Notes under the pieces: generated by a model
What the model was told of the DNA's origin: nothing
The model's database searches: none
The model's input: only the letters and a program-made list of their open reading frames with translations
Origin: Escherichia coli 042
GTDB taxonomy: Bacteria; Pseudomonadota; Gammaproteobacteria; Enterobacterales; Enterobacteriaceae
Strand: one strand, 5' to 3'
Assembly (NCBI RefSeq): GCF_000027125.1
Contig: NC_017626.1
DNA: 64,000 nucleotides
Shown: in pieces, positions 7,395 to 52,004 of the stretch
How positions within the stretch are numbered: the stretch's first letter is position 1
How the letters are laid out: each line of letters starts with the position of its first letter
Program-made: the position numbers and the translations under genes

Positions 7395-7489
7395 CTGAAT
7401 AGATTGAGCCTAGCTCGACGGGGCGAAAAGCGGGAAGCCTTACCGCCTGGCTCAATCACAAAATAAGGCGCAGCGTAAAAGGTGACGCA

Positions 7490-8335
7490 ATGAAAAAACT
7501 ACCACCAAATCTCTTTTTCCGACTTAATAGAGCAGCAAATTTATTAGAAATAGAAGTCGATGATCTTCTACTTATGGGAGTATCAGGCTCTATATTTTTG
7601 AGCACAATAATTCACCAGTATGAAGGCGTACTCTATCAAGCGGGAAACTTGCCACCAGACCACGGCAGCAAAGACATAGAAAACTTATTATTTGGTTCTA
7701 TTATTTCTACTAGAGAAGATACCGAAAGATATCTAAATGAAGGTGTTTTCGATGGTATGAAGTGCTTAGCAAGTGGATTATGGCACGTTCCTAGTGATTT
7801 CATTGCTTCCCTTGCAGGGGTTAAGAGAGCCCCTGACATTCCACTCATATTCTCACCAGCATATATAAAAAAAGAACTAGATATCACATCAGGACGTTAC
7901 TTTTTCTACGATTTTCGCGAACATGATACCACCGTATCGTCTGTGGAAGATTTGTATATATCAAGACCGTGGGTTGAATATATAGCTGAAAGCATGGATA
8001 AAAATCAGCCAATACCCAGCATACTCCATTTGGGTTCACACGATCTTTATGAAAAGGAATTTAAAAACATAGAGCATGGAAATAGAGCACGACATAGCCT
8101 GAACCGTGAGAATAGCATTATGGCGTTGATTTATGTGAAACGGCACTATCCGGAAGAGTGCAAAGGGAAAAACGGGAAAGAAACCAACGAAGCGTGGGCA
8201 AACGCTACGATAGACCACTGGCCACATGTGGGTGGCGATTATGATGAACCATCTACAGATTATTTAAAGAAGATCATATCTGACATGGACAGATTGCCGG
8301 AAAAACGTACCACGGCAGGAAAGAAGAAATCATGA
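7490..8335 (+). CDS. Hypothetical protein, AT-rich orphan cargo gene next to the integrase
   Basis: 281-aa ORF; visibly AT-rich codon usage compared with flanking genes (not computed); no family recognised. Confidence 0.55.
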   Translation: MKKLPPNLFFRLNRAANLLEIEVDDLLLMGVSGSIFLSTIIHQYEGVLYQAGNLPPDHGSKDIENLLFGSIISTREDTERYLNEGVFDGMKCLASGLWHVPSDFIASLAGVKRAPDIPLIFSPAYIKKELDITSGRYFFYDFREHDTTVSSVEDLYISRPWVEYIAESMDKNQPIPSILHLGSHDLYEKEFKNIEHGNRARHSLNRENSIMALIYVKRHYPEECKGKNGKETNEAWANATIDHWPHVGGDYDEPSTDYLKKIISDMDRLPEKRTTAGKKKS

Positions 8336-9928: not shown

Positions 9929-10103
9929 GCCGACAGGAACACCACAACCTCAAAAACGCTACAAAGATGCCCACGGAGCACTCGTTACTGTCGAAAGCGT
10001 GTCTCACAACCGAGTGACGTTTTATCGCGACGGGTATCAATCGCCATGCGTACAACCGCTGGCGCGCTTCATGAAGGAGTTCGCGGAGGTTAACAAATGC
10101 TAA
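9921..10103 (+). CDS. Hypothetical small protein
   Basis: 60 aa; ATG overlaps the stop of the upstream gene. Confidence 0.4.
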   Translation: MFKPTGTPQPQKRYKDAHGALVTVESVSHNRVTFYRDGYQSPCVQPLARFMKEFAEVNKC

Positions 10104-10599
10104 CCGTCCAGAAGAAGATATTTTCACTGGCTGGTATGTCGCCAAAATCCAGCAATATGACAGCAAAGTCTGGCATTAATACAGCAGATGCAAGCAAAGT
10201 TTATCATTTTCTGGTGGTAGGAGCGGATGCCTTAACTATGTCAGAAATTACGGTCGATGGTGTTAGCGTTGAGAAGGTCGGCGGCTGCGCCAGAGAATTT
10301 CTGGTCGTAGATGGCTTTCTCTGCTCGCGTAGTGACTCCACAAAAACCTTCGTCCACACGCGCGACGTTAACGAAATGAGCGCGATGTATTGTGCATCTG
10401 GTGCTTCCAATAGTGAGTTTTCGGAGTCCATAAAAAAGAGCTTGCCGTTATGCGGCAACACGGTTTATGGTTATAAGGCACCTCATAAAACGGGTGCCGG
10501 GATTGGCGTCCTGGTAAATCGAATGGCGACATATGACGCGCCGAGCGTCTTTTTTTATGTCGTAGGTCTGACTCACCCATTTTTTGGGCGTTGGTGTAT

Positions 10600-10730
10600 A
10601 ATCCAGCGCCTTTGTCAATCAATGGTGGCTCAGGCAGGGGCTTCTTCGGAAGCGCCGGTATCCATTCGAGCCGGTTACGCCAACCCTGTCTGGGCTACCA
10701 CCAGCGAAATTGGCGTTTCCGGTGGTAGCG
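10600..10730 (+). ncRNA. Candidate structured RNA (P1 C4 / P4 CI-type immunity RNA) upstream of the icd-like ORF
   Basis: Block conserved with 51380..51505; the stem gctaccacc/ggtggtagc here corresponds to gctatcgcc/ggcgatagc there (compensatory changes), and a second hairpin gcttc/gaagc corresponds to cagcc/ggctg. Confidence 0.45.
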
Positions 10731-10758
10731 TTACATGCTATCGAATGGAGGCTGCCAC

Positions 10759-10953
10759 ATGCTGGCTACTACCCCTACCCAAAAACCGCAATTTATCTGG
10801 ATTATCGCCGCAGTTCGCCGCGATTGCCCGACAATTACCGCCAAAATTCATCATATTGCTGCCGAGTCTGAACGCGATGCTCGCCGTTCTCTGGTGCGCG
10901 ATCACGTCTGCTTTTTTGCTGGTCGTATCCGCATGGAGGTGGCACATGATTAA
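10759..10953 (+). CDS. Icd-like small protein (host cell-division inhibitor family, tentative)
   Basis: 64 aa; ...FIWIIAAVRRDCP...[15 protein letters not shown] is homologous to the island-2 ORF 51527..51724; RBS ggagg upstream. Confidence 0.5.
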   Translation: MLATTPTQKPQFIWIIAAVRRDCPTITAKIHHIAAESERDARRSLVRDHVCFFAGRIRMEVAHD

Positions 10954-11156
10954 AACCTACGATGTGCATATGGATCCCCTCGAACGCACAAGCCAGATCA
11001 TCACACTGACAGAAGTGATTAACGACATTCTGGTGAGCAACTCTCCCTCACGAGACGAAAGACTGAAGGCGTTACTCGCGATATTGGATCTCGCCGTTCG
11101 TGACGTTCATTTCCTGCTGGAAGGTGGCGAAATGCCAGGAAAAACGGGGGCAACCA

Positions 11157-11351
11157 ATGAATAACTCAATTAATGCCCCTCGACTTACGTCCGCACTTCA
11201 ATTAATCGAGCAAGCAGCGGCTGTCCTGGTTGCTGTCAGTCTTTCGGCTGAAGAAATGGACGCTGCTGATGTCGTGGATGCGATTAAAGCGTGCTCATCT
11301 TTGGTTAACGATGCCCGTGCAGAGCTGGTAATTCTTGGGGGTGAAAAATGA
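11157..11351 (+). CDS. Hypothetical small protein
   Basis: ORF 11100..11351, start placed at MNNSINAPRL; part of a chain of overlapping small ORFs upstream of the primase. Confidence 0.45.
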   Translation: MNNSINAPRLTSALQLIEQAAAVLVAVSLSAEEMDAADVVDAIKACSSLVNDARAELVILGGEK

Positions 11352-12434: not shown

Positions 12435-12776
12435 ATGATTACTAAAAATTTCCGACTGAATGCGCTGGCAAATAAGTATGCGTCGGCACTGTATAACCAC
12501 ATTACCTCCACCAGCGGCGGGGACTATTTCATGGTTCATGCGGACGGCGAGGCCGTCCGTGTGGAAATCGTCAATGGAGTAAAAGGCGTTCGCAGCCTGA
12601 TCGATAGCTACACACTGGCAGCCATGAAAGTGTTCTACCCGCAGTGGGAAACCGTGGGGATAGAGCTTCTTGATCGTTGCGTCACTAAGGACGGATTGAC
12701 TGACGTCGGGCGTGAGATATGGCAAAGCATGGTTAATGACATGGGCGCAACTGTAGCGGGAGGTTCTCATGCGTGA
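12435..12776 (+). CDS. Hypothetical protein
   Basis: 113-aa ORF. Confidence 0.45.
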   Translation: MITKNFRLNALANKYASALYNHITSTSGGDYFMVHADGEAVRVEIVNGVKGVRSLIDSYTLAAMKVFYPQWETVGIELLDRCVTKDGLTDVGREIWQSMVNDMGATVAGGSHA

Positions 12777-13140
12777 AAATGCAGAAATGGCGCTTAGCTC
12801 CGCAATCGGAGAGCAGGTGGCAAAGATTGCTGGCGCTGTGTGGATTCATAACCTTCATTCTACTGGTGAAGAGAAAATGGCAATTCAGACGCCAGAGGGA
12901 CGCACCATTACTACATCTCTGAAGGCGTCAGATGTTTGTGATCTGATTTGCGCATTCATGTACCCAGCAATGAGGACTGTCCACGGCGATAAGTGGAAAC
13001 TTGCGACAACCGCTGAATTTGATATGTGGCTAAACAATGATGGCATGCTGACTGATTACGGAATAACCAAGTGGCAGATGCTGGTTAGCCATATCGCAAA
13101 CGCTATAGACCACGTGGGGTACGGTGATGCGAAACATTGA
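12769..13140 (+). CDS. Hypothetical protein
   Basis: 123-aa ORF overlapping its neighbours. Confidence 0.45.
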   Translation: MRENAEMALSSAIGEQVAKIAGAVWIHNLHSTGEEKMAIQTPEGRTITTSLKASDVCDLICAFMYPAMRTVHGDKWKLATTAEFDMWLNNDGMLTDYGITKWQMLVSHIANAIDHVGYGDAKH

Positions 13141-15883
13141 TCTTATCCGCCAGGTTATCAGTGCGTCTGAAAACAACTGGCCTCATGTGCTGGGCTGCCT
13201 GAACATAAATGTCCCTGACTCTCCGCGCCGTCATGCTCCCTGCCCTGCATGTGGGGGCAAAGATCGATTCCGGTTCGATGACAACGGGCGCGGTAGCTTC
13301 ATCTGTAATCAGTGCGGCGCTGGTGATGGACTGGATTTAATTAAACGCGTAAATAACTGCGACACAACAGAGGCGGCGCTTCTTGCCGCTGATGTTCTGG
13401 GTATTGATTACCGGACAACGGAAACACCAGAAGCCACCAGCCAGAAACGGGAACAACTGGAAACCGAGCGCCAGCGACGCGAACAGGAGCGCCTGAAAAG
13501 GGCAGAGAAGGACGAACAACAAAGACGGGATACGTTTTCCCGTCAGTTTGATGACATGCGCAGAAAGGCTGTAAACGGCAAATCTGATTATCTGGTTGCG
13601 AAAGGGGTAGGTGATTTTACATTCCCCGTGTTGCCCGATGGATCTCTGTTGCTGGCGCTGGTGGATAAATCCGGCGCAGTAACAGCAGCACAGACTATTA
13701 CCTCACATGGTGAAAAAAGACTCCTGACAGGTTCAGCAAAGCGAGGGGCATATCACGCCATAAACGCACCAGAAACAACACAGAGCATCTTAATCGCAGA
13801 AGGGCTGGCAACGGCATTATCTGCCCATTTAATTCGTCCAGAGGCGCTGACAGTGGCGGCGATTGATGCCGGGAACCTGTTATATGTCGCCCAGGTACTG
13901 CGGGATAAATTTCCTTCAGCACAAATCATCATTGCTGCGGATAACGACCACAGCGAAGGAAGACAAAACACGGGGAGAATAGCAGCAGAAAAAGCAGCTT
14001 TATCTGTTTCTGGATGGGTGGCATTACCCCCGACAGATCACAAAGCAGACTGGAATGATTACCACCAAAAACACGGCATTAAATGCGCCACAGAAGCGTT
14101 CAATAAGTCAATGTACCAACCACAGGGTAATGGCGTGAAACAGGAGCCACAGACCATTGAGGGAAGCGATTTTAAGGTTATGGATACCGACCCACTGAAA
14201 CCAAGAATAGAAAGCCGCGAGGATGGTATTTATTGGGTATCTCCGAGAGCTGACAGCCAGAGTGGAGAAATCATCAATAACGAAAGCTGGTTATGTTCTC
14301 CGTTAAGCGTTATCGGTACTGGCAGAGACGATAAAGACCAGTATCTCATTCTTCGCTGGCTGTCGTTTGGTTCTGAAACGCCGACAACCGCTGCCATTCC
14401 ACTGGCTGATATTGGTGAACGTGAAGGATGGCGCACACTTAAAGCTGGTGGGGTAAATGTCACGACCAAAAGCAGCCTCAGAGCAATACTGGCAGACTGG
14501 CTACAACGCAGTGGCTCTCGTGAATTGTGGCGTGTTGCTCATGCCACTGGCTGGCAATGCGGAGCGTACATCATGCCTGATGGGGAAATCATCGGAACAC
14601 CTGAAAATCCTGTGCTGTTCAGCGGGAGAAGCTCAGCCGCAGCCGGATATACCGTCTCAGGGAGCGCGAAAAGCTGGCGTGATAACGTGGCGCGTCTGGC
14701 CTTTGGTAACTATTCAATGATGACCGGGATCGGCGCAGCACTGGCAGCGCCATTGATTGGGCTGGTGGGCGCTGACGGGTTCGGCATTCATTTCTATGAG
14801 CAGTCGAGCGCAGGTAAGACCACCACGGCAAACGTGGCGAGCAGCTTATACGGCAACCCTGATTTACTGCGGCTGACGTGGTACGGAACCGCGCTGGGGC
14901 TGGCAAATGAGGCCGCCGCCCACAATGACGGACTAATGCCGCTTGATGAAGTTGGTCAGGGCGCTGATCCTGTCAGCGTTTCACAGTCTGCCTATGCGTT
15001 ATTTAACGGTGTAGGGAAACTGCAAGGCGCTAAAGATGGTGGAAACCGGGATCTAAAACGCTGGCGTACAGTGGCAATCAGCACCGGAGAAATGGATTTA
15101 GAAACATTTATCGCTACTTCCGGGCGAAAAACCAAAGCCGGGCAACTGGTGCGACTGCTGAATATTCCGTTGAGTAAAGCAGTACGCTTTCACGATTACC
15201 AGAACGGAAAACAGCACGCAGACGCACTGAAAGACGCTTACCAGCATCACCACGGCGCAGCCGGGCGTGAGTGGATTAAATGGCTGGCAGACCACCAGCA
15301 ACAGGCAATTAAAACTGTTCGTGACTGCGAAAGCAGATGGAGAAGTCTGATCCCATCCGATTATGGTGAGCAGGTTCACCGTGTAGCCGCGCGATTTGCC
15401 ATTCTGGAGGCCGCATTGCTGTTAGGCGAGGTTGTAACAGGCTGGGATGCTCAGACATGCCGTGATGCGATACAGCACAGCTATAACGCATGGTTGCGCG
15501 AGTTCGGCACAGGTAACAAAGAACATCAGCAGATTATTGAACAAACGGAGGCATTTCTTAATGCCTATGGGCTTAGCCGTTTTGCACCATTTCCATACAG
15601 CCCGGCAGATTTGCCCATCAAAGATTTAGCCGGATACCGTCAGCGTGGAGAACATGACGAAAGCCCAATGATTTTCTACACATTCCCGGCCACATTTGAA
15701 AAGGAGATCGCATGTGGTTTCAACGCAAAACAGTTTGCTGAAGTGTTGAAAAAAGCCGGGATGCTAACCCCACCAAACAGCGGTCGTGGATACCAAAGAA
15801 AATCACCACGTATTCAGGGACGACAAATAAACGTTTATGTACTCAATTACCAGCCAGGAGATTACAACTCATCTGAAGAATGA
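13124..15883 (+). CDS. P4 alpha-like primase/helicase (zinc-binding N-terminus, TOPRIM primase, D5-type NTPase)
   Basis: 919 aa; CPACGGKDRFRFDDNGRGSFICNQCGAGDGLD parallels the island-2 alpha N-terminus; IAEGLATAL...IIIAADND (TOPRIM); SSAGKTT (P-loop). Confidence 0.85.
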   Translation: MMRNIDLIRQVISASENNWPHVLGCLNINVPDSPRRHAPCPACGGKDRFRFDDNGRGSFICNQCGAGDGLDLIKRVNNCDTTEAALLAADVLGIDYRTTETPEATSQKREQLETERQRREQERLKRAEKDEQQRRDTFSRQFDDMRRKAVNGKSDYLVAKGVGDFTFPVLPDGSLLLALVDKSGAVTAAQTITSHGEKRLLTGSAKRGAYHAINAPETTQSILIAEGLATALSAHLIRPEALTVAAIDAGNLLYVAQVLRDKFPSAQIIIAADNDHSEGRQNTGRIAAEKAALSVSGWVALPPTDHKADWNDYHQKHGIKCATEAFNKSMYQPQGNGVKQEPQTIEGSDFKVMDTDPLKPRIESREDGIYWVSPRADSQSGEIINNESWLCSPLSVIGTGRDDKDQYLILRWLSFGSETPTTAAIPLADIGEREGWRTLKAGGVNVTTKSSLRAILADWLQRSGSRELWRVAHATGWQCGAYIMPDGEIIGTPENPVLFSGRSSAAAGYTVSGSAKSWRDNVARLAFGNYSMMTGIGAALAAPLIGLVGADGFGIHFYEQSSAGKTTTANVASSLYGNPDLLRLTWYGTALGLANEAAAHNDGLMPLDEVGQGADPVSVSQSAYALFNGVGKLQGAKDGGNRDLKRWRTVAISTGEMDLETFIATSGRKTKAGQLVRLLNIPLSKAVRFHDYQNGKQHADALKDAYQHHHGAAGREWIKWLADHQQQAIKTVRDCESRWRSLIPSDYGEQVHRVAARFAILEAALLLGEVVTGWDAQTCRDAIQHSYNAWLREFGTGNKEHQQIIEQTEAFLNAYGLSRFAPFPYSPADLPIKDLAGYRQRGEHDESPMIFYTFPATFEKEIACGFNAKQFAEVLKKAGMLTPPNSGRGYQRKSPRIQGRQINVYVLNYQPGDYNSSEE

Positions 15884-15908
15884 GCTTCTTCATGTGCGTA
15901 GAAAAGGC

Positions 15909-16020
15909 GTTGGTTCAGTTGGTTCAGTTGGTTCAATTTGTAAAGAGTATTGTTTTATAAGGATTTTATTCTTTTTATTGAACCAACACTGAACCAACAA
16001 CACGGTATTTTGAACCAACA
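15909..16020. repeat. Iteron cluster (candidate replication origin / primase binding site)
   Basis: Three tandem GTTGGTTCA followed by three inverted TGAACCAAC(A) copies, immediately 3' of the primase gene. Confidence 0.6.
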
Positions 16021-16467
16021 CAATGTGACTGAATTGATGCGCACAACACCTGGCTGGCATCAGAGAGTATTTTACGAGACTTTCGTAAAATCCTGTGTAC
16101 AAGGGCGTGACGTTTTTGAAAGTGAGCACTACGAAATTTTCGTAGTTCAGAAAACAGCCACTGAGAAGTTGTTATGCCTGTTCAGCAAACCATCCGCATA
16201 GCTGATCGCGAATCAAATTACCAATGGAGCCAGAAGCAAGGGCAGAACTGAAAAGCGCCTGCCGTGAAGGGTAATGCGACACCATAAATATAGTTTTTAG
16301 AGTCCATAAAAAACCTGTCAAAACCTGACACACAGAACGATGCCACCAGCTACTGAGCGGTGGCATTTTTTTGTGCTATCTGTTTCATATTTTGCAATTA
16401 CGATGATGAATATTGCGATTTGTGAAACTATAATAACTGTTGTTTTATACAGTTCTAAGGGGGCGTT

Positions 16468-17778: not shown

Positions 17779-19199
17779 TGGCGACATGGCAACTTGGCGG
17801 GCTGCCTAGCATGGCACCGCAAAATGATAATGCTCCTCGTTCTTCCGTTCCTCAGCCTGTGCAGTATCAGCAGCAGCCAAACGTAGGTTTAATGGCGCTA
17901 CAGGGGCTAAGAGGCGTTGCTGAGATTAATCAGCAGGCACGTCAACAACAGCGTAAAGCAGAGTTTCAGAAAGCATATGCCGGGGCTTTTGAGTCTGGAG
18001 ACAGAAACAAAATGCGCAGTCTTATTTCTGAGTATCCAGAAGAATTTGAAAGCGTTCAGAAAGGGATGGGCTTTATTGATGACGACCAGAGAAATTCTAT
18101 TGGTCATCTTGCGACTAGTGCTCAAATCGCATCTTCGCTCGGAACTGGGGCATTTGGAAAATTCATAGCAGATAACGAAGATGAAATGCGTCGCTTGGGA
18201 ATTTCTCCTGAGTCTGTTGCCGAAATGCATGTTAATGATCCACAGGAATTCCAGCGGCTTGCTGGTAGTATGGCACTGTTTTCTCTCGGTCATGAGAAGT
18301 ACTTCGATATCAAAGATCGAATGGAAGGTCGGGATATTGAGCGTGGCAAGTTGGCAGAGACAATCCGCAGCAATCAGGCTGGAGAGGCGCTTCAGGCGAG
18401 AGGGCAGGATATTAGCCGAGCAAATGCGTTAACGTCAGCATATGCACCAACAGCCGCAATGCAGAATTACAATCAGTACGCGCAAATGTTAAAGGCGGAT
18501 CCAGAGGGGGCAGCGGCATTTGCGGCAGCGGCTGGAATTAATACAAACGCCAAAAAATTAATGAGTGTTAGGGAAAACGATGATGGCACTGTCACAAAAT
18601 ACTACACAGACGGAAGTGAAGAGCAGGGAAAACTAAACCAGCCAATATCTGGAGATGGGTTTCGTCCAATAGCTTTGCCAACAGCCCAAAAGATCATGGA
18701 AAAGTCGCCAGAAGGGGCTAAAAAAGCTGCTGGATTTGCATACAGAGTTAGGGATGCTCTTGATTCAATGGATACACTGAAAGGCCAGCTTAGCCCACAG
18801 CGAGTGGCGATCATTAATAATGCTTTGGGTAATGGGACGCTGGCTAACTTAACGCTCAGCCCAACAGAGCAGCAATACGTTGTTAATGCTAATGACGCAA
18901 TAATGGCAATACTCCGTCAGGAAACAGGGGCAGCTATCGTACCTGCTGAAATGTCAAAATATTATCAAATGTATTTCCCTCAGCCTGGCGACTCCACAAA
19001 AACCATTGATACCAAGCGCCGGAAGATGGAAAACCAGTTCAATTCGCTGAAAGCTGCTTCTGGTCGAGCTTATGATGCTTTGCGTGTTATTTCAGCAGTT
19101 GACAGAGGAACTTCTTCTTCGTCGCAGACATTGCCGCAATCTGAGCAGGTATCACAGCCAGCAGCCAGCAGTAATTTTTCTTCACTATGGGGTGATTAA
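17778..19199 (+). CDS. Hypothetical protein (Q/A-rich)
   Basis: 473-aa ORF, start overlaps the previous stop. Confidence 0.55.
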   Translation: MATWQLGGLPSMAPQNDNAPRSSVPQPVQYQQQPNVGLMALQGLRGVAEINQQARQQQRKAEFQKAYAGAFESGDRNKMRSLISEYPEEFESVQKGMGFIDDDQRNSIGHLATSAQIASSLGTGAFGKFIADNEDEMRRLGISPESVAEMHVNDPQEFQRLAGSMALFSLGHEKYFDIKDRMEGRDIERGKLAETIRSNQAGEALQARGQDISRANALTSAYAPTAAMQNYNQYAQMLKADPEGAAAFAAAAGINTNAKKLMSVRENDDGTVTKYYTDGSEEQGKLNQPISGDGFRPIALPTAQKIMEKSPEGAKKAAGFAYRVRDALDSMDTLKGQLSPQRVAIINNALGNGTLANLTLSPTEQQYVVNANDAIMAILRQETGAAIVPAEMSKYYQMYFPQPGDSTKTIDTKRRKMENQFNSLKAASGRAYDALRVISAVDRGTSSSSQTLPQSEQVSQPAASSNFSSLWGD

Positions 19200-44605: not shown

Positions 44606-44700
44606 GGAAGATCGTCGTCTCCGGTGAGGCGGCTGGACTTCAAATCCAGTTGGGGCCGCCAGCGGTCCCGGGCAGGTTCGACTCCTGTGATCTTCCGCCA
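44606..44700 (+). tRNA. selC: tRNA-Sec (selenocysteine, anticodon UCA)
   Basis: 95-nt ggaagatcgtcgtctccggtgaggcggctggacttcaaatccagttggggccgccagcggtcccgggcaggttcgactcctgtgatcttccgcca; long extra arm; anticodon loop cTTCAaa. Confidence 0.95.
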
Positions 44701-44862: not shown

Positions 44863-46044
44863 ATGGCTCTCACCGATATACAGATCAAACGTGCAAAACC
44901 ACAAGACAAGCCATACACATTGAACGATGGACAAGGTCTGTCATTGCTTATCAATCCCGATGGCTCGAAAGGCTGGCGTTTCCGTTTCCGGTTTGCAGGG
45001 AAAGCGCGGTTAATGTCATTTGGCAGCTACGATTTAGTAAGCCTCGCAGAAGCACGTGAGAAGCGTGATATCGCCCGTAAGCAGGTTGCTAATGGCATTG
45101 ACCCGGTAGAGGAACGCAAAGCTTTAAGACTCGCCCAAAAGCTATCAACAGAAAATTCTTTCGAAGCAATATGTCGAGAATGGCATACCAACAAAGCTGA
45201 CCGCTGGACTGTGGCCTATCGAGAAGAAATCATTAAGACATTCGAGCAAGATGTCTTCCCGTTCATTGGTAAACGTCCTATCAGTGAAATCAAACCATTA
45301 GAACTGCTTGAAGTATTACGACGAATCGAAAAACGTGGAGCACTAGAGAAAACACGCAAGGTGCGTCAAAGATGCGGTGAGGTTTATCGCTATGCAATCA
45401 TAACTGGCCGTGCTGAGTACAATCCTGCACCTGATTTAGCTATCGCTCTGGCCGTTCCCAAGCAAAAACACCATCCATTTTTATCCGCTGAAGAGTTGCC
45501 TCATTTTATTCGAGATCTTGAAGCGTATACCGGTAGCATCATCACCAAAAATGCTACGAAGATAGTCATGCTGACTGGTGTAAGAACGCAGGAGATGCGC
45601 TTTGCTACGTGGGAAGAAGTAGACCTCGAAAAAGGTATATGGGAGATACCAGCGGAACGTATGAAAATGCGTAGACCTCACATTGTTCCTTTATCTACTC
45701 AGGTAGTTGACCTTTTCAAACAGCTCAAACCTATTACCGGCCATTACCCTTACATCTTTATTGGTAGGAATAACCGTAATAAACCAATCTCAAAAGAAAG
45801 TGTATCACAAGTAATTGAGTCACTCGGTTACAAAGGACGTGCTACCGGTCACGGTTTTAGACATACAATGTCGACAATTCTACATGAGCAGGGGTTTGAT
45901 AGTGCATGGATTGAGATGCAATTAGCACATGTGGACAAAAACAGTATTCGTGGGACATATAACCATGCCCAGTATCTGGAAGGCAGAAAAAAAATGATGA
46001 ATTGGTATGCTAATCATATCTTTAATATAGGGGTTCCTAAATGA
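44863..46044 (+). CDS. int: P4-type tyrosine integrase
   Basis: 393 aa MALTDIQIKRAKPQDKPYTLNDGQGLSLLINPDGSKGWRFRF; sits beside attL. Confidence 0.9.
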   Translation: MALTDIQIKRAKPQDKPYTLNDGQGLSLLINPDGSKGWRFRFRFAGKARLMSFGSYDLVSLAEAREKRDIARKQVANGIDPVEERKALRLAQKLSTENSFEAICREWHTNKADRWTVAYREEIIKTFEQDVFPFIGKRPISEIKPLELLEVLRRIEKRGALEKTRKVRQRCGEVYRYAIITGRAEYNPAPDLAIALAVPKQKHHPFLSAEELPHFIRDLEAYTGSIITKNATKIVMLTGVRTQEMRFATWEEVDLEKGIWEIPAERMKMRRPHIVPLSTQVVDLFKQLKPITGHYPYIFIGRNNRNKPISKESVSQVIESLGYKGRATGHGFRHTMSTILHEQGFDSAWIEMQLAHVDKNSIRGTYNHAQYLEGRKKMMNWYANHIFNIGVPK

Positions 46045-46179: not shown

Positions 46180-47616
46180 ATGTGCATAGAATTAAAAAAG
46201 TTTTCAATTAAAAAATTATATGGCTATAAAGACATACATCTAATTTTCAATAAAAAAAGTACAATTATCATTGCAGAGAATGGTGCTGGCAAAACTACGC
46301 TAATCAATGCACTTAAATCCACCTTAAAAGGTGAGTTTGATGAACTAAGAAAAATCAAGTGTGAGAGTATTGATATAGAGTTTTCTGATCAAAAATTCAC
46401 ATTGAATATTGCAGCATTAAGTTATTCTGATTTTCTGAATAATGCATTGTTACCAACTAGATTTCGTGAAATCACGAAAAATCTTAATAATACACAAATT
46501 GAAGATGCATTAGCATTTCTAAGACATAAACCAGTGAAGGATGCCCGTCAGACTACATGGTACCGAAAAATGTATCATACAACTCCTTATAATTACATTG
46601 ATATCGACTCGACATTATCCGAAGTCAAAATCTTATTAAAAAATCATTATTCATCTCTTGAAAAACCTGATCTTTTCTCTGTAAATAAACCAGAACTGTC
46701 TAAAACCATCCATGCAATAGAGGAAATAAAACAGAAAACAAAAAATATTGAAATAATATATTTACCTACATACCGACGCATTGAAAAATCTACACTTCGT
46801 GATAAGTTTACTAGAGATGAAAATGAAAAATTCGTCTTTAGAGATGGAGAGATCGTCAGTATTCGCGAGGAAAGTGAAACTAACTTAAATATAGAGTTTG
46901 GTTTGTTTGATGTTGAATCAAAATTAAAAGATTTAAGCGCATCCATTGAGCGCCGTTCAAGTTTAGGCTATAGAAAGTTAAGTGCAACCATAATTGAAGA
47001 TATGATGACAGGAAAAGCCAGTGCCCCAACAAAACCTAAACTGCCATCTGTATCTGAATTATCAAGATTTTTAGGTAGGGTAGTTAATAAAGATAAGGAA
47101 AGTAATAAGAGGATAATTCAAGAAGTTACAAGCATCATGGAAAATAAAGATATGCTCGCATCAAATAATATGCTGAGTTATTTCCTATCTAAATTAAAAG
47201 CTGTCATCGACTCAACTAAAGAGCTCGAACTAAAAATAGAGAGCTTTGTTACCATTTGCAATAAATATCTACAGTTATCAGATGATTCAAAATCGCTAAA
47301 TTTTGACATTGAAACATTACAAGTTATTGTAAAAGACTTATTCACAAATAACCCCATTGAATTAGAAGATCTTTCCTCAGGCGAAAAACAAATAATTTCT
47401 TTGATGGCTCATATGTATCTTGACCATACTAAGAAAAAAATTGTTTTAATAGATGAACCAGAATTATCGCTCTCACTTGAATGGCAAGAGCATGTCCTCG
47501 TAGATATAGTGAATAGCCCTTCAGTTACTCAAATGCTTGCAATAACACATTCACCTTTTGTTTTTAATAATGAACTGAAATCCCAAGTAACATCTTTGAA
47601 AGTTATCAAGCATTGA
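46180..47616 (+). CDS. ABC-type ATPase (AAA_15/AAA_21-like), candidate AriA-like (PARIS) or AbiLi-like defense ATPase
   Basis: 478 aa; Walker A AENGAGKTTLINAL; Walker B/D-loop IVLIDEPELSLSLEW; H-loop-like AITHSP; AT-rich; SD gtaggag 8 nt upstream; in the P4 int-psu cargo slot. Confidence 0.7.
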   Translation: MCIELKKFSIKKLYGYKDIHLIFNKKSTIIIAENGAGKTTLINALKSTLKGEFDELRKIKCESIDIEFSDQKFTLNIAALSYSDFLNNALLPTRFREITKNLNNTQIEDALAFLRHKPVKDARQTTWYRKMYHTTPYNYIDIDSTLSEVKILLKNHYSSLEKPDLFSVNKPELSKTIHAIEEIKQKTKNIEIIYLPTYRRIEKSTLRDKFTRDENEKFVFRDGEIVSIREESETNLNIEFGLFDVESKLKDLSASIERRSSLGYRKLSATIIEDMMTGKASAPTKPKLPSVSELSRFLGRVVNKDKESNKRIIQEVTSIMENKDMLASNNMLSYFLSKLKAVIDSTKELELKIESFVTICNKYLQLSDDSKSLNFDIETLQVIVKDLFTNNPIELEDLSSGEKQIISLMAHMYLDHTKKKIVLIDEPELSLSLEWQEHVLVDIVNSPSVTQMLAITHSPFVFNNELKSQVTSLKVIKH

Positions 47617-47624
47617 GGATTAGA

Positions 47625-48551
47625 ATGGACGATCTTCGTTTTAATATGATGATGGATGCGATCAAAAAACCGTGTGTTTTGAGATTAAAGCTAATTAAAA
47701 ACAAAAAGGCAGGAAAGGCTTTATTTGTTTTCGAAGGTGACGATGACTATGATTTCTATCATCATGCTATAACTATTTCCGGTTTCGATAAAGAATATAC
47801 TCATATAAATGGGGCAGGAAAGAACCAATCTATTTCCCTTTATGAAGAATTATATAAAGAAAATAGTGATAATTTACAAAACACATATTTTTTTGTTGAT
47901 CAAGATTACTCTACCTTCTGTTACTCTAATAAAAACATAGTAACACTTCCATTTTATGCCATTGAGAACCCATTATCAGATGATAGAGTAATAAAACATT
48001 TTATAATCTCAACATTTAAACTTGACGAAAGGCATAGCAAAATTATAAATAGCGTTATGGGCTTTTATTCTAAGGCAAAAGCTAGCTTTTATTCTGAGAT
48101 AAAAAACATATCTATACAGCTGTATATGTCCAGAATACTTGGACTCGCGATAGAGTTTCCTTCAAACCATGAATTATTCGAAAAAATTGAAAAGGAAAAA
48201 GTCACCCTTAAAATAAATGAAATACCGGCAATTACTGATCGGTTAAAAAAAATAACAAAAGACGAAGAGAATTACTACAAAGTAATTTCCACTCTAGATA
48301 ATGACAAACTGACTAGAGGAAAGTATGTTTACTATTTTGTTAGCGAGTGGTTAATCCGCATAAAAAAATACATCAATTCAAGGATAGATAGTATAAATAA
48401 TGAAAGCGCCTTAAACTCTACCTCTTCAGTAGTGAATGAAAAAAAATTATCCAAACAACAATATGATCATACTGACCTGTCAATCGCAAGGCTTGTTCCT
48501 GCATGTATGAAAGTAAAAGAATTGGATGCTTTCTTAAAAAGGATTAATTAA
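47625..48551 (+). CDS. TOPRIM / DUF4435-like protein, candidate AriB-like (PARIS) or AbiLii-like effector
   Basis: ORF track starts at a TTG (47613); I place the start at the ATG 47625 with SD gagga 6-10 nt upstream. LFVFEGDDDYDFY and FFVDQDY fit TOPRIM Glu and DxD acidic motifs; AT-rich; separated from the upstream ATPase stop by 8 nt. Confidence 0.65.
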   Translation: MDDLRFNMMMDAIKKPCVLRLKLIKNKKAGKALFVFEGDDDYDFYHHAITISGFDKEYTHINGAGKNQSISLYEELYKENSDNLQNTYFFVDQDYSTFCYSNKNIVTLPFYAIENPLSDDRVIKHFIISTFKLDERHSKIINSVMGFYSKAKASFYSEIKNISIQLYMSRILGLAIEFPSNHELFEKIEKEKVTLKINEIPAITDRLKKITKDEENYYKVISTLDNDKLTRGKYVYYFVSEWLIRIKKYINSRIDSINNESALNSTSSVVNEKKLSKQQYDHTDLSIARLVPACMKVKELDAFLKRIN

Positions 48552-51137: not shown

Positions 51138-51379
51138 TGATGCCCGCTCTGCAAAAAGTCCCTTTTTCTGGCTTGCCTTTTTCCGGCATTTGCGGATATA
51201 GTTTTTCCGCTGCCGCAAAATCGGCAGCCGGGCGTAGGAACCCGTGTAACTCGAAGGCGACATATGACGCGCCATGCGTCTTTTTTTGTGTCGCAATCAA
51301 CGCCACAGAGCGCCAGATTATGGTGTGGCGTGTGGTTTGCCGTGCAGGTATGATCCTGTTCGCAATCGCATGTTATGCC

Positions 51380-51505
51380 ACTGAGTCAATGGTAGCTCAG
51401 GCGGGGCAGCCTCCGGGCTGGCCGGTATTCTTCGAGGCCGGTATTCCTACCCCCGTCTGGGCTATCGCCATCGAGCGTAGGAACTCCGGCGATAGCAGTT
51501 ATTTG
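51380..51505 (+). ncRNA. Candidate CI/C4-type immunity RNA
   Basis: Homologous to 10600..10730 with compensatory stem changes; preceded by a hairpin plus T-run (gacgcgccatgcgtc ttttttt at about 51264-51292). Confidence 0.45.
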
Positions 51506-51526
51506 CTACTCGAAGGAGGCTGCCTT

Positions 51527-51724
51527 ATGGCTACAACCCTTACCCCCTCACACCCTGAATTTGTCTTTGTGTTTGCGGCTGTCCGTCGCGCAGACCGTCA
51601 TCCCCGTATCTGCATGCTTCGCACCGTCGCCGGTGATGAACGCAGCGCCCGCCGTTCCCTTGTCCGTGACTATGTGCTCTCCCTTGCTGCCCGTCTGCCG
51701 GTGGTGGAGGTGTCCCGTGCGTAA
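51527..51724 (+). CDS. Icd/Kil-like small protein
   Basis: 66 aa [50 protein letters not shown]...; gaaggagg SD; homologous to the island-1 ORF 10759..10953. Confidence 0.5.
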
Positions 51725-52004
51725 TAAAAAAGCCCCTCAGACCGTCTCAGCGCGTCATGACGCCCGTGAACACCTCAGCATTGAGGCTTACCATAAGCTC
51801 AACCGCGCCAGCGCCGTATCCCAGTTTGTTGGGGGTGATTTGATTCACCGTGAACTCTCCGGCCTGCATCAGCTCTACATTCCGCATATTTTCAGCTACC
51901 TGAATGAAGATATTGATTTTGTGCTGAATGAGCTGAAAGCCAAAGGCCTGTGCCGCGATTTTCTCGCCCAGCAGAAAGACCGGGGAGACAGGACGCATGT
52001 TTGA
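51717..52004 (+). CDS. Hypothetical protein (occupies the position of P4 epsilon)
   Basis: ORF track frame 51561..52004; proposed GTG start at 51717 overlapping the icd-like stop; start uncertain. Confidence 0.35.

Follow-up and report, generated by a model that had tools for sequence, protein, structure and literature searches.

RNAs of the C4 family are excised from a longer precursor as stable species of approximately 77 to 80 nt, with RNase P acting at the 5' end. Immunity modules of the phage P1/P4 type are well described. An IsrK-C4 immunity system has already been published, and the published accounts agree with the modules described here (PMC3632133, PMC4825925, PMC10111431). A passage of PMC10111431 that cites Forti 1999 states that P4 eta is translated only from an upstream late promoter and that this translation prevents termination. 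Work on Gifsy-1 proposes two leader conformations, and short IsrK activates there in trans (PMC4825925). The role of the upstream element may therefore differ from that of a passive seqA target.

We analyzed a window of 64,000 nt from Escherichia coli 042 (contig NC_017626.1) that contains two islands with such a module. One of them, island 2, is a P4-like satellite located at selC; the other, island 1, is PICI-like and has a diverged copy of the module. Each very probably encodes a C4/CI-type antisense-RNA immunity switch that silences the island's own replication operon while it is chromosomal (probability of roughly 0.85). Both modules are real and ordinary. They are new copies of a textbook system.

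The preliminary description had claimed that the two regions align despite their divergence, that they share the layout of P1 immI (C4, icd) and P4 immunity (CI RNA, kil), and that both islands carry RNA-based immunity switches. These claims held. Positions 10420-10960 and 51150-51730 align with a mean column identity of 76%. The layout is borne out by matches to the Rfam C4 model, by target sites, and by Icd-like ORFs, and the switches by the C4 model, the target sites, and the 91.3% identity of island 2 to P4. Every element named earlier is present at, or close to, the position given for it. The operon headed by the Icd/Kil-like ORF ends in a primase gene in each island (919 aa with TOPRIM/DUF927 in island 1; 777 aa, alpha, in island 2). 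The RefSeq annotation contains neither RNA in either island, and in island 1 it also lacks the Icd-like gene. The features are listed in Table 1.

Table 1. Features of the immunity modules of islands 1 and 2, with positions in the window
Island	Feature	Position	Strand	Basis or remark
1	Candidate constitutive PLE-type promoter	10442..10471	+	TTGCCG-18-TATGGT, read from sequence
1	isrK/seqA-type leader RNA	10478..10555	+	Rfam RF01394, 67.1 bits
1	Target a1, UUGGCGU, loop of isrK hairpin 2	10503-10509	+	Complementarity to a'
1	Target b1, UCGAAUGG, within isrK	10519-10526	+	Complementarity to b'
1	isrK intrinsic terminator	Stem 10535-10549, T7 run 10550-10556	+	Terminator scan
1	eta-like long ORF, 355 aa	10097..11164	+	RefSeq "ash family protein"
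1	C4/CI-type antisense RNA	10618..10705	+	RF01695, 79.5 bits
1	b', UCCAUUCGA, hairpin-2 loop	10661-10669	+	C4 fold, complementarity
1	a', ACGCCAA, junction	10677-10683	+	C4 fold, complementarity
1	Alternative hairpin, GCUACCACC/GGUGGUAGC	10694-10702/10721-10729	+	Covariation; gctaccacc/ggtggtagc
1	Target a2, UUGGCGU, loop of alternative hairpin	10710-10716	+	Complementarity
1	Target b2, UCGAAUGGA, overlaps SD GGAGG (10747-10751)	10741-10749	+	Complementarity
1	Icd/Kil-like ORF, 64 aa	10759..10953	+	NF033153, 71.7 bits; not in RefSeq
2	PLE-type promoter	51173..51202	+	TTGCCT-18-TATAGT, called by scan
2	isrK/seqA RNA	51209..51286	+	RF01394, 72.3 bits
2	Target a1, GUAGGAA	51234-51240	+	Complementarity to a'
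2	Target b1, CUCGAAGG	51250-51257	+	Complementarity to b'
2	isrK intrinsic terminator	51266-51287	+	Terminator scan
2	Eta homologue, 211 aa	51089..51724	+	Overlaps 3' end of alpA/orf88 homologue
2	CI RNA of P4 type (C4 family)	51385..51472	+	RF01695, 74.4 bits
2	b', UUCUUCGAG	51428-51436	+	Complementarity
2	a', UUCCUAC	51444-51450	+	Complementarity
2	seqC-type leader	51461..51519	+	Contains alternative hairpin, a2, b2
2	Alternative hairpin	51461-51469/51488-51496	+	gctatcgcc/ggcgatagc
2	Target a2, GUAGGAA, loop of alternative hairpin	51477-51483	+	Complementarity
2	Target b2, CUCGAAGGA, overlaps SD (51515-51519)	51509-51517	+	Complementarity
2	Kil homologue (Icd-like), 65 aa	51527..51724	+	NF033153, 76.1 bits; P4 synteny

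The preliminary description had called for an Rfam covariance-model scan and for folding of both copies. The scan matched the C4 family in each island above the gathering score of 45, and both matches span model positions 1 to 87 of 87. The RNA is 88 nt long and tRNA-acceptor-like. Its b' segment, in the loop of hairpin 2, and its a' segment, in the junction, are exposed. In island 1, a 17-bp outer stem encloses two hairpins. The MFE fold is the Rfam C4 fold, with z-scores of -5.8 in island 1 and -4.7 in island 2. Across 44 nonredundant relatives, the fold pairs in 100% of 1,188 cells. Six pairs are compensatory, with double changes, and the observed covariation was reached in none of 500 shuffles. 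Together with the z-scores, this excludes chance. The change of gcttc/gaagc to cagcc/ggctg, described before as coordinated, is real. It corresponds to hairpin 1 of C4, in which four of the five pairs have changed on both sides and 100% of cells are paired in the 44 relatives. Covariance model, fold z-scores, and covariation all agree with the selected RNA structure that had been proposed.

Target sites of the seqA/seqC type, which were also to be looked for, are present in both islands. In each, a' (7 nt) and b' (9 nt) are perfect Watson-Crick complements of a2 and b2, and b2 lies on GGAGG. They are perfectly complementary also to the upstream pair a1/b1 within isrK. Among the relatives, the loop, the upstream site, and the downstream site co-vary at fixed positions in 27 specificity combinations. 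The mean match length is 7.0 to 8.1 nt in cis, compared with 4.5 to 5.3 nt in mismatched pairs. No cross-complementarity was found between the two islands; neither a'/b' set fits the targets of the other. Since the a and b sequences differ among island 1, island 2, and P4, these elements should not cross-repress. The two islands are predicted from these sequences to be heteroimmune to each other, and island 2 is predicted to be heteroimmune to P4. In both islands, the SD region GGAGGCUGCC is complementary over 10 to 12 nt to the P4-type hairpin 1 (GGCAGCCUCC), and this was considered as a conserved interaction. It was rejected because relatives whose hairpin 1 has another sequence show no covariation.

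Each Icd/Kil-like ORF has GGAGG 7 nt 5' of its ATG. Homologous ORFs of 64 to 66 aa with a strong SD had been expected here, and both ORFs match the NCBIfam Icd-like family (NF033153; cutoff, 25 bits). They are 44% identical to each other. The island 1 ORF is 28% identical to P1 Icd (E = 6e-7), and it is called as a separate gene in relatives with a broken long ORF. A tblastn search with this 64-aa ORF against 50,697 phage records returned nothing at E <= 1e-3, the query being too short for a database of that size. Pairwise BLAST found no similarity between P4-type Kil and P1 Icd.

The island 1 promoter was not called by the consensus scan, having 8 of 12 matches and falling under the threshold. 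Its alignment with the called promoter of island 2 and its invariance in eight relatives are the reasons for retaining it as a candidate. Its predicted start, approximately 10478, is the first base of the isrK match. In each island the promoter-like site sits within the long ORF. A second promoter just 5' of C4 was considered at TATAAT (10597-10602) and TATGAT (51349-51354). It was rejected, as neither has an acceptable -35 or an extended -10 and the scan made no call. The two hexamers are nevertheless conserved.

The leader RNA scores above the Rfam isrK threshold of 50 bits (RF01394) in both islands. RF03163 (c4-a1b1) also matched island 2 above its gathering score, with 49.1 bits at 51196-51248, overlapping isrK. 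In island 1 it was sub-threshold at 17.9 bits. Compared with shuffles, the isrK folds have no excess stability (z = -0.8 and -1.1). Support for isrK comes from the covariance model. The upstream hairpin and T-run noted in the preliminary description are the intrinsic terminator of this isrK-family RNA in both islands.

A separate hairpin lies just 3' of C4. For its 5' arm it uses the 3' strand of the C4 basal stem. The coordinated change between the islands that had been reported for its two arms is real (Table 1); 96.2% of cells are paired, and two pairs are fully compensatory in 25 cells. The hairpin reuses 7 nt of the outer-stem 3' strand and is therefore an alternative to the mature C4 fold, not part of it. 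A leader hairpin that sequesters the SD is predicted in 39 of 41 leaders. Consensus folding of the leaders keeps only a 4-bp anti-SD:SD helix, with little covariation. The folding models suggest that this hairpin may sequester the SD.

These features bear on the role of isrK. Instead of a passive seqA target, it could be mainly an anti-antisense activator in trans, like its counterpart in Gifsy-1. By titrating C4 or remodeling the long mRNA, its short terminated product would then turn on icd and the downstream genes. This role has experimental precedent in Gifsy-1 (PMC4825925), and isrK comes with a promoter-like site of its own and with a strong intrinsic terminator. Its a1/b1 sites are identical to a2/b2, so it must compete for C4. 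The covarying alternative hairpin and the predicted SD-sequestering hairpin would provide a two-state leader. However, the covariation for SD sequestration is weak, and the genetics of P4, as summarized in PMC3632133 and PMC4825925, make seqA a target required for establishing immunity. The two roles are compatible, and the sequence favors neither. Activation as the main role of isrK appears possible but unlikely, and we prefer to read both modules as antisense-RNA immunity switches.

A long ORF runs through each module. In island 1, it begins 5' of the internal promoter and overlaps the stop of a DUF4222 gene (ATGcTAA). It then passes through isrK, C4, the icd-like gene (out of frame), and the next gene (in frame from 10946). 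Its last third is the icd-like gene read out of frame and fused to that next gene. In island 2, Kil is nested in frame at the C terminus of the 211-aa Eta homologue, with the eta ATG at -297 and kil at +141. In island 1, the long ORF starts at -522 and the icd-like ORF at +140, not 141. The latter is therefore out of frame, and the nested eta/kil arrangement of P4 is absent from island 1.

The 355-aa ORF had been called probably spurious. This was right in that its Ash domain consists of translated RNA genes and its last third is out-of-frame sequence. It was wrong in that the frame is conserved. Among 66 relatives retrieved by DNA motif, the frame is open across isrK and C4 in 63, compared with none for each other frame. 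All eight classes of isrK-C4 spacing differ by multiples of 3. Exact matches to the frame-preserving T7 run of the terminator number 131 in complete E. coli genomes, compared with none for T6 and none for T8. T6 and T8 variants, which break the long frame, occur in three Logan assemblies. None has an exact match among 5,426 complete genomes, and they were therefore not counted against conservation of the frame. A codon-position test in close relatives gave a weak bias for the N-terminal 115 codons (16/8/22). Substitutions in the RNA segment have no third-position bias, and those in the RNA and icd segments are too few to be decisive. Because of the open frame, the spacing, the T7 run, and the precedent of P4 eta, the ORF is best seen as an eta-like read-through frame. 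It is neither a random ORF nor a conventional protein.

The modules could also be intact in sequence but relics that now control nothing in domesticated or cryptic islands. Many P4-like and PICI-like islands of E. coli are defective, the nested eta/kil frame is not kept in island 1, and some relatives carry the frame-breaking T-run variants. Against this, the relatives show either no variation or covariation in the promoter, linker, C4 scaffold, and all four target sites, whereas 13% of sites vary in the adjoining coding sequence. An integrase, alpA, and a full-length primase are still present in both islands. Island 2 has also kept psu, delta, and sid, P4 late genes of which none was found in island 1. 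In S. Typhi, TraDIS found IsrK-like elements of P4-like prophages to be required (PMC3632133). Relic status is improbable for either module, and we continue to read both as immunity switches.

The Pfam Ash profile (PF10554) matches aa 124 to 232 of the long ORF (E = 5.7e-30). These residues correspond to nt 10466-10792 and coincide exactly with isrK, C4, and the SD/leader. PHROG families labeled repressor or regulator match the long ORF as well. The Pfam profile matches, but what it matches is RNA elements and not a folded domain with its own function. The Ash "domain" is what isrK, C4, and the leader yield when translated conceptually, and the evolution of these elements follows RNA pairing. 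The historic P4 "cI/ash aa 1-137" ORF is in the same frame as the long ORF. The Ash/repressor label descends from that ORF and is not a sign of a repressor protein; the P4 reference record carries "transcriptional repressor." It is very improbable, and largely refuted already, that the region encodes such a protein ("Ash" or "transcriptional repressor") and owes its nucleotide conservation to that protein and not to RNA genes: the RefSeq name, the profile matches, and the conserved open frame speak for it, but the Pfam and PHROG matches coincide with the two Rfam RNAs and extend to no other sequence, the stems are compensatory with all cells paired, variation is concentrated in the a and b elements at three places that change together, which a protein would not need, the RNA-segment substitutions lack third-position bias, and the literature now treats P4 immunity as CI RNA (PMC3632133, PMC4825925, PMC10111431).

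The antisense-RNA switch would operate as follows, by analogy with P1, P4, and Gifsy-1. Read-through transcripts would be processed, with RNase P at the 5' end, to give a stable C4/CI RNA. This RNA would pair with a1/b1 and a2/b2 on nascent transcripts. Pairing would block translation of icd/kil and promote termination at the isrK terminator and, via Rho, downstream. The replication genes would be kept off, and C4 would restrict its own synthesis. On induction, transcription from the upstream promoter (alpA operon) would let ribosomes on the eta-like frame cross the terminator, C4, and the targets. Their passage would prevent RNA pairing and termination, and expression would become insensitive to immunity. 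At both loci, every step beyond the ability of the sequences to pair is proposed by analogy.

A more specific proposal combines a conserved four-arm leader switch with selection on the reading frame through the length of the terminator T-run. Arms 1 and 2 would be the 5' and 3' strands of the C4 stem. Arm 3 would be GGUGGUAGC, preceded by the anti-SD CUCC/UUCC, and arm 4 would be GCUAUC, b2, and the SD. Pairing of 1 with 2 and of 3 with 4 would give mature C4 and a sequestered SD. The alternative hairpin would be the middle state, in which 2 pairs with 3, the SD is free, and a2 is displayed in the loop. The eta-like frame must be read through the intrinsic terminator, and the length of the T-run would therefore face frame selection. 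If the switch is real, folding and excision of C4 would be coupled directly to icd/kil translation. Neither part is spelled out in the published IsrK/C4/P4 accounts (PMC3632133, PMC4825925, PMC10111431). We consider the combined proposal doubtful.

The module matters mainly for annotation and interpretation. Both islands can be labeled with functional-looking modules that are predicted to be mutually heteroimmune. A P4-like satellite and a PICI-like island could therefore coexist in one genome without cross-repression. The names "ash family protein" and, in P4, "transcriptional repressor" are inherited from an ORF call of the 1980s, and Ash should not be treated as a repressor protein. The conserved long frame fits the "translate-through" anti-immunity logic of P4 eta. 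If an ORF-overlap filter dropped the ORF or the RNA, half of the mechanism would be missed.

Among known systems, island 2 is closest to P4. The two are 91.3% identical over 601 nt of the immunity region (CI RNA, seqA, seqC, eta/kil). Island 2 has the synteny of that region (orf88/alpA, eta/kil with CI inside, epsilon, orf151, orf106, alpha). Gene order and ORF sizes agree for orf88/alpA, eta/kil, orf151, orf106, and the 777-aa alpha, with psu, delta, and sid upstream. They differ in both specificity elements. In P4, a' is UUCUCAC and b' is UCCUGUGAA; in island 2, they are UUCCUAC and UUCUUCGAG. Island 1 shares with P4 the order of elements and the output, a primase operon. In both islands, as in P4, a long frame runs through the RNAs. 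The similarity of island 1 to P4 is at the level of the module only, and its C4 segment is approximately 71% identical. Its hairpin 1 is unlike that of P4, its long ORF is extended by 123 aa at the N terminus, its icd-like ORF is not in the long-ORF frame, and it lacks psu, delta, and sid. Many lambdoid phages match the island 1 module. The 355-aa and 211-aa ORFs match Pfam PF10554 (Phage_ASH) and PHROG "transcriptional repressor" families strongly, through residues that are translated RNAs.

Both islands have the curated order of P1 immI (a1, b1, c4, a2, b2, icd). The spacing is also like that of P1/P7 immI, with upstream a and b elements of 7 and 8 nt, a2 directly after c4, and b2 approximately 18 nt before the icd start. 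The RNA belongs to the same Rfam family (RF01695), and the first ORF is Icd-like. P1 also has a terminator-like hairpin after b1. The output of P1 immI is the Ant antirepressor, from a C1-controlled promoter, whereas that of the islands is a replication/primase operon. The Icd-like ORF is followed here by small ORFs and the primase, not by ant, and an AntA/AntB-family gene lies upstream of the module in island 1. As read from its sequence, P1 has no ORF through c4; the corresponding frame stops in the b' loop. The island module would work in the same way as immI, without being a P1 immI operon. The isrK-orf45-anrP region of Salmonella Gifsy-1 (IsrK sRNA, STnc1160) has the same isrK Rfam family as the islands. 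Its terminator permits read-through into a structured RNA and a small ORF, and two leader conformations have been published for it (PMC4825925). It differs in that its output is the antirepressor AnrP and in that IsrK has been shown there to be a trans activator.

Both islands in the window, a PICI-like island (island 1) and a P4-like satellite at selC (island 2), share a structured RNA followed by a homologous small ORF with a Shine-Dalgarno sequence (SD), as the preliminary description had stated. Rfam, the locus alignment, and NF033153 bear this out in every particular. The Rfam scan of the whole window at gathering thresholds gave seven matches, and five of them lie in the two modules (see the table). 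The C4 and isrK models matched in both islands. The a1/b1 target motif (RF03163) matched in island 2 and fell below threshold in island 1, at 17.9 bits. Aligned with each other, the two loci are 76% identical across about 590 columns, with conserved blocks at a promoter-like site, the terminator of isrK, a -10-like hexamer, the scaffold of C4, and the SD with its ORF. The small ORFs are 44% identical and match NCBIfam NF033153 ("host cell division inhibitor Icd-like"; cutoff, 25 bits). RefSeq carries no annotation for the one in island 1.

Features of the two immunity modules and their islands
Feature	Island	Position	Strand	Details
int-alpA RNA (RF02996)	1	7403-7469	+	60.6 bits; just downstream of integrase
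isrK (RF01394)	1	10478-10555	+	67.1 bits; threshold 50
a1 (in isrK)	1	10503-10509		UUGGCGU
b1 (in isrK)	1	10519-10526		UCGAAUGG
-10-like hexamer	1	10597-10602		TATAAT
C4 antisense RNA (RF01695)	1	10618-10705	+	79.5 bits; threshold 45
b' (C4 hairpin-2 loop)	1	10661-10669		UCCAUUCGA
a' (C4 junction)	1	10677-10683		ACGCCAA
a2 (alternative-hairpin loop)	1	10710-10716		UUGGCGU
b2 (overlapping SD)	1	10741-10749		UCGAAUGGA
Icd-like ORF	1	10759-10953	+	64 aa; GGAGG before it; NF033153, 71.7 bits
tRNA-Sec (selC)	2	44606-44696	+	83.8 bits; island 2 adjoins
P4-type integrase	2	44863-46044	+	directly after tRNA-Sec
PARIS system	2	46180-48551	+	two genes
a1/b1 target motif (RF03163)	2	51196-51248	+	49.1 bits; threshold 46.7
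isrK (RF01394)	2	51209-51286	+	72.3 bits; threshold 50
a1 (in isrK)	2	51234-51240		GUAGGAA
b1 (in isrK)	2	51250-51257		CUCGAAGG
-10-like hexamer	2	51349-51354		TATGAT
C4 antisense RNA (RF01695)	2	51385-51472	+	74.4 bits; threshold 45
b' (C4 hairpin-2 loop)	2	51428-51436		UUCUUCGAG
a' (C4 junction)	2	51444-51450		UUCCUAC
a2 (alternative-hairpin loop)	2	51477-51483		GUAGGAA
b2 (overlapping SD)	2	51509-51517		CUCGAAGGA
Icd/Kil-like ORF	2	51527-51724	+	65 aa; GGAGG before it; NF033153, 76.1 bits

The -10-like hexamer lies about 15 to 30 nt upstream of C4, and the linker that holds it is invariant in close relatives. The promoter scan called no promoter at either hexamer, and the -35 was not convincing. 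The hexamer may serve as a promoter or as a determinant for RNase P, or it may reflect a codon constraint.

Each C4 RNA alone folds exactly into the Rfam structure (z = -5.8 in island 1 and -4.7 in island 2). None of 200 shuffles was as stable as either fold. About 100 loci were drawn from IMG/VR by two conserved DNA motifs, not by ORFs, and the covariation alignment contained 44 nonredundant C4-plus-leader sequences. All 1,188 cells of the Rfam fold pair in these sequences. Six C4 pairs show double-sided changes, and four of them are in hairpin 1, the stem first noted as gcttc/gaagc versus cagcc/ggctg. The C4 covariation exceeded that of every one of 500 shuffles and of every slid control. 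The other proposed stem (gctaccacc/ggtggtagc versus gctatcgcc/ggcgatagc) also covaries but lies outside the Rfam C4 model. It is an alternative hairpin, in which the 3' strand of the C4 basal stem pairs with the next 9 nt downstream. In this hairpin 96.2% of cells pair, two of its pairs are fully compensatory (25 cells), and it cannot coexist with the bottom of the C4 stem. In 39 of 41 family members, folding predicts that the leader hides the SD once C4 has formed, in a helix whose covariation is weak. The alternative hairpin would be the state competing with this helix. A published two-conformation model for Gifsy-1 resembles the two states.

Element names follow the curated P1 record, with a of 7 nt and b of 8 to 9 nt. 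The search for complementary target sites of the seqA/seqC type found upstream (a1/b1) and downstream (a2/b2) sites for the exposed C4 segments a' and b' in both islands. The a elements of both islands and the b elements of island 1 pair by Watson-Crick pairs only. The b' of island 2 forms one G-U wobble with b1 and one with b2. Between the two islands, no a' or b' matched the other's targets in either direction. We found 27 distinct a'/b' combinations in 67 modules, and the loop, upstream site, and downstream site change jointly at fixed positions in nearly all 27. Matches averaged 7.0 to 8.1 nt in cis versus 4.5 to 5.3 nt with flanks from modules of other specificity. P4 has a' UUCUCAC and b' UCCUGUGAA. 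Because a' and b' differ among them, island 1, island 2, and P4 are predicted from sequence to be three different immunity types.

Among the IMG/VR loci (L001 to L108), b' UUCUUCGAG occurs with a' UUCCUAC, UUCUCAC, or UUUCCAC. Such mixed combinations imply recombination between immunity types, with the three copies of each element altered in step. Hairpin 1 of the P4-type CI RNA (GGGGCAGCCUCC, 51403-51414) is complementary over 11 to 12 nt to GGAGGCUGCC, the SD-to-start region of both islands (51515-51526 and 10746-10756). This match is probably incidental, because it does not co-vary in relatives with another hairpin 1.

The 355-aa ORF across the island 1 module (10097-11164) had been called probably spurious. 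RefSeq labels it "ash family protein" (WP_000958748.1). Its sole Pfam match is Phage_ASH (PF10554) at aa 124 to 232 (nt 10466-10792), and PHROG "transcriptional repressor/regulator" families match the same stretch. This is precisely the promoter, isrK, C4, and leader, so the "Ash domain" is a translation of RNA genes, an annotation artefact that overlies a conserved frame for read-through. The frame is also that of the historic P4 "cI/ash aa 1-137" ORF. PF10554 and several PHROG repressor families, and hence the RefSeq names, were built on translated isrK and C4 (10097-10792; P4 NC_001609 8168-8584).

The suspicion was right for the Ash match but not for the frame. A frame was scored as open if it ran without a stop for 170 nt or more upstream and 130 nt or more downstream. 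The frame in phase with the TCA-ATG-G of C4 is open in 63 of 66 unique modules; each of the other two frames is open in none of the 66. Eight a1-to-C4 spacings (-74, -77, -95, -104, -116, -152, -161, and -164) are all congruent modulo 3. The start of the long-frame ORF is upstream of the internal promoter in every case, and the Icd/Kil ORF is mostly nested in it at offset +141. Island 1 is an exception. There the offset of the icd-like ATG is +140; icd is therefore read in the wrong phase by the long frame, which carries on into the next gene in phase with it (10946-11164). The usual nesting is seen in a sister element (L022). The N-terminal 123 aa have no homologues outside near-identical islands of E. 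coli and Salmonella. In this segment 13% of sites vary, codon bias is weak (16/8/22), and there are no stops or indels. Some database relatives stop at 155 or 210 aa because the T-run of the isrK terminator is T6 (L111) or T8 (L112), both in Logan assemblies, instead of the T7 at 10550-10556. A 66-nt T-run probe of 5,426 complete genomes gave 131 exact matches for T7 and 0 for T6 and T8. We conclude that the long ORF is an eta-like read-through frame, neither a random ORF nor one that encodes a functional 355-aa "Ash" protein.

Strain SCU-316 has an island 100% identical to island 1, located between yicC and dinD. Island 1 starts with an integrase, the int-alpA RNA match, and an AlpA-like HTH gene, followed by a 143-aa ORF, an AntA/AntB-family gene, a DUF4222 gene, and the module. 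After the module it contains seven small ORFs, a 919-aa TOPRIM/DUF927 primase, and P22-like ejection-protein genes. This layout is that of a PICI-like satellite. A 281-aa ORF (7490-8335) downstream of the int-alpA RNA had no defence-family match in PADLOC. A late zone at about 17787-21313 (+) (12761-16287 in the related element L109) contains genes for P22-like DNA ejection/injection proteins and for a protein with DUF2824; close to the dinD end there is a gene for a Doc-family toxin. These genes suggest a PICI-like satellite with captured helper late genes.

The tRNA-Sec and integrase mark the attachment site and left end of island 2. It carries the PARIS anti-phage system in the hotspot between the integrase and psu (AriA, 478 aa, E = 1.4e-32; AriB, 312 aa, E = 1.5e-15). 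On its reverse strand are ORFs that match psu, delta, and sid in size. The module is preceded by an 88-aa homologue of alpA/orf88 and followed by 151-aa and 106-aa ORFs and a 777-aa alpha primase.

From the observed parts, folds, co-varying complementarity, and conserved frame, we infer the working of the switch by homology to P4, P1, and Gifsy-1 (PMC3632133, PMC4825925, PMC10111431, and the P1 annotation). A constitutive internal promoter would transcribe the isrK/seqA leader, whose terminator would stop most transcripts. Processing of read-through transcripts would free C4/CI. This RNA may then pair with a1/b1 and a2/b2, occluding the icd/kil SD and promoting termination, which would keep the primase operon silent and C4 synthesis self-limited. 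Transcripts from the upstream alpA operon would be translated in the eta-like frame from one end of the region to the other and so escape immunity.

The proposed P1 immI/P4-like layout, with a probable RNA immunity switch in both islands, agrees with the target pairing and with both phages. Window 51140-51740 is 91.3% identical to P4 (X51522 8152-8761). By this identity and the P4 annotation, the C4, isrK, and small ORF of island 2 are the P4 CI RNA, seqA, and kil, respectively. In P1 the elements follow one another in the same order and at the same spacing, and b1 is likewise followed by a terminator-like hairpin. The island 1 module matches "immunity region" or "antirepressor" loci in many lambdoid, N15-like, and P1-like phages. 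PMC10111431, which cites Forti 1999, places CI and seqA within P4 eta and describes Kil as a truncated Eta. According to this summary, eta is translated from the upstream late promoter only, coupled to the alpA homologue, and its translation prevents termination. The long frame with its nested Icd/Kil has this eta/kil arrangement, from which island 1 departs by its offset. The homologies IsrK-seqA and STnc1160-CI are discussed in PMC4825925, and C4 and isrK matches within Bro/eta-type genes are reported for Gram-negative PICIs (PMC10111431). C4 and isrK are both curated Rfam families. Among the 5,426 complete E. coli genomes, 1,315 match the island 1 query and 2,124 the island 2 query. The antisense-RNA immunity module is real, well interpreted, and already known. 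Our additions are modest: the predicted heteroimmunity of the two copies, the many specificity-element combinations, "Ash" as a translated-RNA artefact, and the covarying hairpin outside the Rfam model.
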